DNA from: Girardia tigrina
Lineage: Eukaryota
Length of the DNA: 60,182 nt
Assembly: GCA_001938485.1 (NCBI GenBank)
Contig: MQRK01234277.1
Location: forward strand, 1 to 60,182
Reading direction: 5' to 3'
Shown: positions 135 through 805 of the stretch, piece by piece
Position numbering within the stretch: position 1 is the first letter of the stretch
How the letters are laid out: every line of letters starts with the position of its first letter
Notes under the pieces: model-generated
The model's input: the letters and a program-made list of their open reading frames with translations, nothing else
The model's database searches: none
What the model was told of the DNA's origin: nothing
Program-made: the position numbers and the translations under genes

Positions 135-634
135 TTATTGAGTCTTGTGAACGCAAGTTTAGTATTTCGAAAATATAATTTGATTAAAGCTTTTTTTATA
201 TAATTATTGAACATGTTTCGATGTTTACATACATCATCATCAGCAATTTTTAGATGTTTAATATATGAATATTGAATTGTTTGAATAACACAATTTTAAT
301 ATATACATTTACTTTAAAATGTATATTAGGAATTTTATATTATTATTTATTAAAGTATTATTGGGTAATAATGGCAAAAATATTTTAATTAAAAATTTTA
401 AGTATTGAAATAACCTTACTTTGCCCATTCTGGATGTTAATTGATGGGTTGTAGTNNNNNNNNNNNNNNNNNNNNNNNNNNNNNNNNNNNNNNNNNNNNN
501 NNNNNNNNNNNNNNNTGAAATGGATGAGGTTCTATCCTTACAACATAACCAATGATCAAGAACCTTACTCGATCGACTCATTTGCGAGTGCTCGCAAATC
601 TGGGTTTTGAGATGACGATTTGTCTCTCCGATGT
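135..634 (-). mobile_element. Penelope-like element 3' end (C-terminal half of GIY-YIG endonuclease + 3' tail), copy 1
   Basis: Minus strand reads (H)IGETNRHLKTQICEHSQMSRSSKVLDHWLCCKDRTSSIS, then gap, then [22 protein letters not shown]. Near-identical to 30050-30558 and 57650-58094. Confidence 0.85.
206..247 (-). ncRNA. Minimal hammerhead ribozyme motif (Penelope-associated)
   Basis: Minus strand ATTG-CTGATGA-T-GATG(TATGTAAA)CATC-GAAA-CATGTT-CAAT: conserved CUGAUGA/GAAA core, helix I ATTG/CAAT, helix II, vestigial palindromic helix III; cleavage triplet GUU. Confidence 0.75.
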
Positions 635-805
635 GGGCCTCCCATCTCTGTAATGGTATTGAGCCTAAGGCTCTTTAGAGGGTCCACCCAAACTAAAGTC
701 CTAAAGGGCCCCCCGATAGGCCTCCTACGGGGTCAGTGGCCTTCCGCCTCTGAGCAGTCGGCTTGCCAGTAACGAACGACCAACTTGGTACCATGGCCGT
801 ACATG
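635..805 (-). mobile_element. 3' fragment of RTE-like LINE (divergent subfamily), copy 1
   Basis: Encodes [25 protein letters not shown], compared with [26 protein letters not shown] at about 57493-57570; same hairpin-rich 3' end. Confidence 0.8.

Follow-up and report, generated by a model that had tools for sequence, protein, structure and literature searches.

Evidence for recurrent insertion of a tail-less zinc-finger LINE into the nuclease motif of Penelope elements in Girardia tigrina

It is highly probable that separate insertions of a tail-less LINE with one open reading frame (ORF) have struck the Tyr codon of the GIY-YIG motif of Penelope elements in the genome of Girardia tigrina, the LINE protein likely reading the split signal GTGT-N9-T^AC. 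With hundreds of events and a defined split motif, this is a candidate site-preferring LINE of a lineage that we take to be RTE-like.

Three LINE-Penelope loci in one contig

We analysed a stretch of 60,182 nucleotides (contig MQRK01234277.1 of assembly GCA_001938485.1, hereafter the window), in which a LINE 3' end is fused to Penelope sequence at three loci. The features are as follows.

128..634, minus strand: Penelope 3' part behind copy 1, with the remaining GIY-YIG endonuclease (IGETNRHLKTQICEH...) and the 3' repeat; N gap at 456-515
205..250, minus strand: minimal core resembling a hammerhead (CTGATGA...GAAAC), within the Penelope 3' repeat; motif only
624..634, minus strand: downstream target half ACATCGGAGAG, which is what insertions at Penelope sites usually duplicate
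635..805, minus strand: copy 1, 171 nt of a 5'-truncated family A1 LINE (ORF end and a 3' UTR of about 75 nt)
806..1100, no strand assigned: repeat of a different family that flanks copy 1 on its 5' side and is interrupted at the LINE 5' end, with neither upstream Penelope nor duplication
30049..30558, minus strand: Penelope 3' part of copy 2; an N gap (30407-30554) masks the junction past ACAT
30559..31321, minus strand: copy 2, a 5'-truncated family B LINE with C2H2 zinc fingers and 3' UTR
31327..31457, minus strand: upstream Penelope half of copy 2, carrying GTGT-N9-T^ACATC; ACATC is repeated at the 5' junction
55915..57649, plus strand: copy 3, a decayed family B LINE with RT, thumb and three zinc fingers
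57650..58108, plus strand: Penelope 3' part of copy 3, with the junction variant ACATTGGAGAG and a hammerhead-like core near 58022

Copy 1 ends without a tail in GGCCC, its last LINE base being 635 and the first target base 634, and its 94% identity to a family A1 copy (L180) assigns it to A1. Copy 2 is 94% identical to a family B copy (L175) and has Penelope on both flanks. The 5' end of copy 3 adjoins a DNA-transposon-like terminal repeat; the remnant that abuts it (55500-55918) is presumably mariner-like, judging by this terminal repeat, and the LINE does not resume beyond it, its remaining part being absent from the window.

The preliminary description held that the coding 3' end of copy 1 differs clearly from those of copies 2 and 3, and this is indeed the case, copy 1 encoding WSFVTGKPTAQRRKATDPVGG and copy 3 a different, B-type peptide. 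The peptides quoted there are present in copies 1 and 3, but in copy 2 a 17-nt deletion cuts the peptide after a B-type start. The junction, GGCCC followed by ACATCGGAGAG, was also described as identical in the three copies; it is exact in copy 1, whereas copy 3 has one mismatch (ACATTGGAGAG) and copy 2 is N-gapped after ACAT. Its placement is correct, as target duplications start at AC, and two junction matches are seen in the window where 0.03 would be expected by chance.

A pairwise comparison of the LINE and Penelope parts found the proposed unequal divergence for copy 1 only. Its coding 3' end differs from copy 2 at 13 of 52 aligned bases and from copy 3 at 16 of 62 (25-26%), against 18 of 318 and 26 of 377 (6-7%) in the Penelope flank (Fisher test, p about 6e-5 and 4e-5, respectively); over the final ~100 nt of the LINE, copy 1 is just 3% and 10% different from copies 2 and 3. 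Between copies 2 and 3 the two parts are similarly diverged (LINE 6.3%, flank 8.8%, p = 0.17). Independent insertion by separate LINE families at one Penelope base, the reading then favoured, is borne out at the family level by the data presented below. Copy 1 has neither upstream Penelope nor a 5' duplication, and for this copy itself we therefore infer independence.

The LINE lineage and its short partner

The single ORF of the LINE comprises an APE, an RT and three C2H2 zinc fingers. In a family B protein of 1188 aa (P0126), Exo_endo_phos matches residues 2-239 and RVT_1 residues 534-780, in addition to zf-C2H2, and the APE was also found in family A and D copies. At least five families were distinguished in the genome (A1, A2, B, D and E), with protein identities of 69% for A1-A2, 68% for B-D, 53% for A1-B, 50% for A1-E and 55% for B-E. 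A and B had been described as subfamilies; at about 53% protein identity they are separate families.

In an RT tree of 23 rows, A, B, D and E are united at 99/97, with the pairs B+D and A1+A2. E stands next to A at just 89/83, and a tree that keeps A+B+D together is not rejected (p-AU = 0.21). The zinc-finger lineage forms a branch of its own (100/99) beside unnamed relatives, in a tree built without named RTE references, and the closest relatives of the RT are unnamed proteins, many of them with DUF6451. It is from its motifs and from these relatives that we presume the LINE to be RTE-like. A single ORF with an N-terminal APE and an RT is of RTE type, but the short tandem repeats of RTE 3' ends are absent, GGCCC adjoining the duplication directly. 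Relatives with three fingers in other datasets show 29-40% identity, and a scan of metagenomes found 44 loci, for the most part distant RTs; the best one (L249) stops short of the LINE 3' end.

The last 75 nt of the LINE (635-710 in the window) differ by only 7-15% across all families, despite proteins that are 50-55% identical, which suggests either a constrained element recognised by the RT or an exchange of 3' ends. At the extreme 5' end of full-length family B copies, right after the duplication, there is a weak HDV-like ribozyme match (L092:321-404 and L138:1407-1490), seen in 2 of 5 family B loci scanned, with E values of 0.1-1 that lie under the Rfam threshold.

A short element of about 420 nt, S, shares part of the LINE 3' end. 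It combines a ribozyme-like head with the LINE 3' motif (L183:2834-3249, from G000:C239140; also L187 and L368-L395), and 1296 first-look candidates were counted in the genome. S insertions are flanked by 10-13 bp duplications and use the same split target motif as the LINE; 4 of 20 sampled lie at the Penelope site.

The Penelope target

The LINE enters an EN+ Penelope, whose GIY-YIG motif is interrupted within the Tyr codon, at T^AC. An RT followed by a C-terminal GIY-YIG domain, two Cys located between the GIY and the YIG, and the R, H, E and N residues are all found, in agreement with the EN+ definition in the accessible part of bioRxiv 10.1101/2021.04.23.441226 and with the Penelope definitions in that of PMC4209133. 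The peptide read across the empty site shares 96% identity with P0177, a protein that carries an RT, and 44% with a second protein, P0178, itself with a weak Pfam GIY-YIG match (E = 3e-4); a Pfam search of the empty-site peptide itself gave no match. At least three diverged Penelope families (e.g., KCHKCESLY and KCHECESLY) were entered at the same codon.

A hammerhead-like core motif is found in the Penelope 3' repeat of all three window copies. A search of the window against Rfam gave no hammerhead match, and folding of the 3' ends and of the hammerhead region yielded z-scores of -0.06 to -0.75, not better than shuffles, so that no structure is claimed. We rejected the hammerhead as a part of the LINE, since GGCCC is where the LINE stops and Penelope does not follow most of its copies.

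Genome-wide use of the site

Exact-pattern counts over the 1.43-Gb assembly, in which mutated copies are missed and some contigs are duplicates, gave 471 LINE-Penelope junctions (control pattern: 0) and 799 empty Penelope sites. By these counts, one retroelement disrupts the nuclease gene of another in roughly a third of the copies, some of the filled sites being stacks. By exact counts, the LINE end is followed by ACATCGG in 304 of 800 cases for family A, 126 of 1250 for B/D and 0 of 214 for E. Similar differences appear in locus samples chosen solely for their LINE end: the Penelope YIG peptide lies downstream of 19 of 56 ends in A, 13 of 60 in B/D and 0 of 28 in E, and 9 more A ends and one more B/D end, mostly stacks, are followed by the target 11-mer only. 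Further samples had Penelope at 5 of 28 D ends and 0 of 46 E ends. The share of insertions at Penelope is therefore 38% for A and 10% for B/D by exact counts, and 50% and 23% in samples when stacks and diverged Penelopes are counted.

Several features of strictly target-specific elements are present, namely a fixed 3' junction and orientation, variable 5' truncation and a multicopy target; the concentration of nearly all copies at one site is not. Targeting is a preference and is not strict. The target specificity put forward in the preliminary description thus stands as a strong preference, but at least half of the copies lie elsewhere, at a common split motif.

The LINE might instead prefer the repeat-rich chromatin around Penelope, any TAC being usable, and its copies are indeed often found among other repeats. 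Such a preference is extremely unlikely to be the explanation, and is largely refuted by the single-base position: all direct Penelope cases among 144 sampled ends begin at one base, against about 40 TAC per 1.3 kb. Moreover, a genome-wide exact search of the same GTAC palindrome for reversed insertions found 0, and family E is absent from the site.

Two pairs of family B/D insertions (L008/L026 and L006/L152) share the same non-Penelope downstream sequence, and may mark minor hotspots within other repeats or else loci that were duplicated.

A split target signal shared by on-target and off-target insertions

The pre-insertion sequence was readable at 34 off-target sites with duplications (8 from A, 8 from B, 9 from D, 8 from S and 1 unassigned). 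At positions -14 to -11 these sites have G in 29, T in 28, G in 31 and T in 24 cases; T occupies -1 in all 34, A +1 in 33 and C +2 in 28. GTG is found at the motif position in 24 of the 34, and at any other offset at most 3 times. The motif was first spotted by eye in S loci, and 15 sites obtained later constitute a held-out set, among which GTG is present in 10 and at least three of the four letters in 14. No decayed Penelope nuclease was found at the 34 off-target sites, one of which has an unrelated Penelope end upstream. In Penelope itself, the motif corresponds to G+TGT (the second Cys codon of the CCHH motif), three codons and TAC (the Tyr of YIG), and it occurs once in a stretch of 1.3-1.4 kb that has about 40 TAC sites.

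Family E is a natural negative control in the same genome. With 14 of 47 sites resolved, it shows GTG in 0 of 14 and T at -1 in 14 of 14 (Fisher test of the GTG difference, p = 8e-6). The helices of its zinc fingers are little different from those of B and D, so the fingers are not an obvious reason for the loss of the preference. As a separate observation, by-eye comparison of E with A/B/D revealed that a K of the first zinc finger is replaced by T and that the TSWxHP loop of the APE has two acidic changes; as candidate causes of the different target, these are a lead only.

The motif predicts an insertion share at Penelope of 0.3-1.2% with 7 core positions and 3-12% with 11 positions, and of 16-47% with 21 positions, which are over-fitted; these shares were computed for 1270-6000 assumed Penelope sites. 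The motif may be enough for the B/D share. It is probably not enough for the 38% of family A, and this low predicted share means that A probably needs additional determinants.

The excess of family A beyond the motif could be accounted for if the 3' end of a read-through LINE RNA paired with the nicked target (ACAUCGG...), RNA-DNA pairing rather than protein then steering the insertion. Pairing between the RNA 3' end and the target has been proposed for other LINEs (accessible part of PMC6007223), A at +1 is near-universal, and the junction is bridged by contigs from sequencing runs guessed to be RNA. Against this, T at -1 and GTGT at -14 to -11 lie upstream of the nick, outside the RNA end, and little information is found past +2 at the off-target sites. 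In addition, both ends of the duplication show that the target already had AC before the insertion, and three copies (L184, L384 and L394) lie at the upstream Penelope motif although the sequence after AC is foreign. We consider steering by RNA pairing to be improbable.

Under the reading that we favour, recognition by the LINE protein, this protein would attach to GTGT a helical turn upstream, the APE would nick at T^AC, and the LINE RNA would be copied from its GGCCC end through target-primed reverse transcription. We infer upstream binding, APE nicking and target-primed reverse transcription from known LINE biology. A cut of the second strand 4-17 bases on would then give the duplications seen. 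Several Penelope families keep the signal, likely through protein constraint, and its occurrence once per 1.3 kb of element would lead copies to accumulate at one base and to break the nuclease gene. The signal persists on the 5' side of every insert, which is where later A, B, D and S copies stack. Family E has the same RNA end and no preference for GTGT or C, and none of its copies was found at the site.

Independent insertions and block copying

The counts above could reflect copying if one or a few LINE-Penelope chimeras had been multiplied as a block, by the Penelope machinery or by duplication. Among 105 filled junctions, 51 run to a contig edge or gap and 54 are resolved; upstream Penelope is kept in 23 of the latter, partly kept in 1 and absent, at least in the recognisable form of the main family, in 30. 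The 30 sites, to which copy 1 belongs, are what a 5'-truncated chimeric Penelope would leave, and Penelope elements are able to carry other sequence (reverse nesting and Penelope-mediated carrying are described in the accessible part of PMC3846280). The 23 sites with upstream Penelope have, by contrast, duplications of 4-13 bp starting at the target and 23 different insert lengths, from 83 to 3526 nt, as individual insertions would.

We searched for block duplications at 22 of the 30 sites, after setting 8 aside (3 S ends, 4 with some Penelope upstream and 1 reaching the locus edge). In this test, run without a positive control, 19 sites had no candidate and 3 had a 7-nt repeat, which lies at both block ends at a single site (L320), in favour of block copying, and off the boundary at the two others.

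The flanks were compared in a tree of 62 rows of 300 nt, namely copy 3 and 61 rows out of 92 candidates; excluded were rows that were gapped or short, diverged families and loci that had been chosen for their resemblance to copy 1. Flanks do not group by LINE family, contrary to what copied blocks would give (28 label changes against 28.7 when shuffled), and A flanks are as distant from one another (0.079) as from empty sites (0.078). The tree is star-like, with 2 of 59 branches well supported, and hence has little power. LINE copies at Penelope are separated by mutual distances of 0.060 (A), 0.037 (B) and 0.033 (D), and their flanks by 0.079, 0.075 and 0.060. LINEs more alike than their flanks are expected upon entry into existing Penelope copies, with the reservation that base composition differs between the two parts.

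Stacks joined by a duplication were found with A before B or D, with B/D before A and with D before B, and S occurs both before A or B and after them. As stacks exist in both orders, the periods in which the families were active overlapped. The same base is common to five element types and to several Penelope families, and the off-target motif agrees with the Penelope site, both of which speak against block copying. As a sole cause, block copying is already refuted, and that it underlies the pattern in the main has little likelihood. The insertions are mostly independent; some of the 30 sites without upstream Penelope may be chimeras moved by Penelope.

Age of the preference and relation to known systems

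Most likely, the preference is older than the split between A and B. A single origin, no later than this split, is the simplest reading, family E having lost the preference or never had it. The earlier notion of a long-conserved specificity is supported only as far back as the A-B split within this genome; family E is without the preference. Contigs bridging the junction come from sequencing runs of two organism labels, and their variants resemble this same family; they give no support for deep conservation.

The nearest parallel in another transposon is Tx1L (Tx1 clade) of Xenopus laevis, which inserts into the transposon Tx1D (accessible part of PMC1635306). Both are APE-type non-LTR elements entering one site in another transposon. 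Unlike what that part of the source describes, insertion here hits a catalytic motif, that of a retroelement endonuclease, the element is tail-less and has one ORF with C-terminal C2H2 fingers, at least half of the copies are off target, and the site is common to several families.

RTE LINEs and SINEs (Bov-B, plant RTEs, Sauria and Au SINEs) have a split Tn-TA signature, which in the LINEs precedes the nick by about 10 nt, and for RTEs it has been proposed that a protein binds one turn upstream (accessible parts of PMC6007223 and PMC13295347). The geometry found here, a signal some 10 nt before the T^A nick, is the same and only the letters differ; a single APE-RT ORF and a short partner element with a common 3' end are further likenesses. 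On the basis of the same sources, the differences are GTGT instead of a T stretch, the preference for C at +2, the lack of a 3' microsatellite, three C-terminal zinc fingers, and 10-38% of the copies at one base of a multicopy target. RTE-1 appears among elements that insert at random (PMC13708176, accessible part), and most of the target-specific families reported in the accessible part of PMC4640811 belong to early-branched, Tx1 and R1 groups, not to RTE. As in R1/R2, so far as the sources at hand describe them, the target is multicopy and conserved, copies stack in tandem and a weak HDV-like match lies at the 5' end; unlike in R1/R2, insertion does not go into a host RNA gene and specificity is loose.

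A literature search whose reach stopped short of Repbase, subscription journals and supplements turned up no description of a LINE aimed at Penelope elements. The present case is a candidate for a LINE of RTE-like descent that prefers a transposon, brought into the Penelope nuclease motif by its GTGT-N9-T^AC signal. It makes testable how a loosely specific APE-type element turns site-specific, and which domain reads the signal before the nick.

The match to Penelope may be an adaptation or a lucky coincidence. It is conceivable, if rather doubtful, that an RTE-like LINE evolved to hunt Penelope. Its protein would recognise two codons of the Penelope active-site motif, those for Cys and Tyr, which are not easily mutated, and the LINE would disable each copy entered; Penelope would act as a safe harbour and a source of transcription, a 5' ribozyme would free the LINE, and family E would have given this up.

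Other features of the window

The repeat family at 806-1460, which includes the 5' flank of copy 1, has 457 first-look candidates and a 204-aa open frame with a weak ankyrin match. An integrase ORF (rve, H2C2) of LTR-retroelement type lies at 7104-7943 on the minus strand. Perfect 87-nt inverted repeats (2162-2248 and 2331-2417), one on each side of a 50-N gap, and perfect 72-nt direct repeats (47456-47527 and 47578-47649), also flanking a 50-N gap, are probably assembly artefacts.
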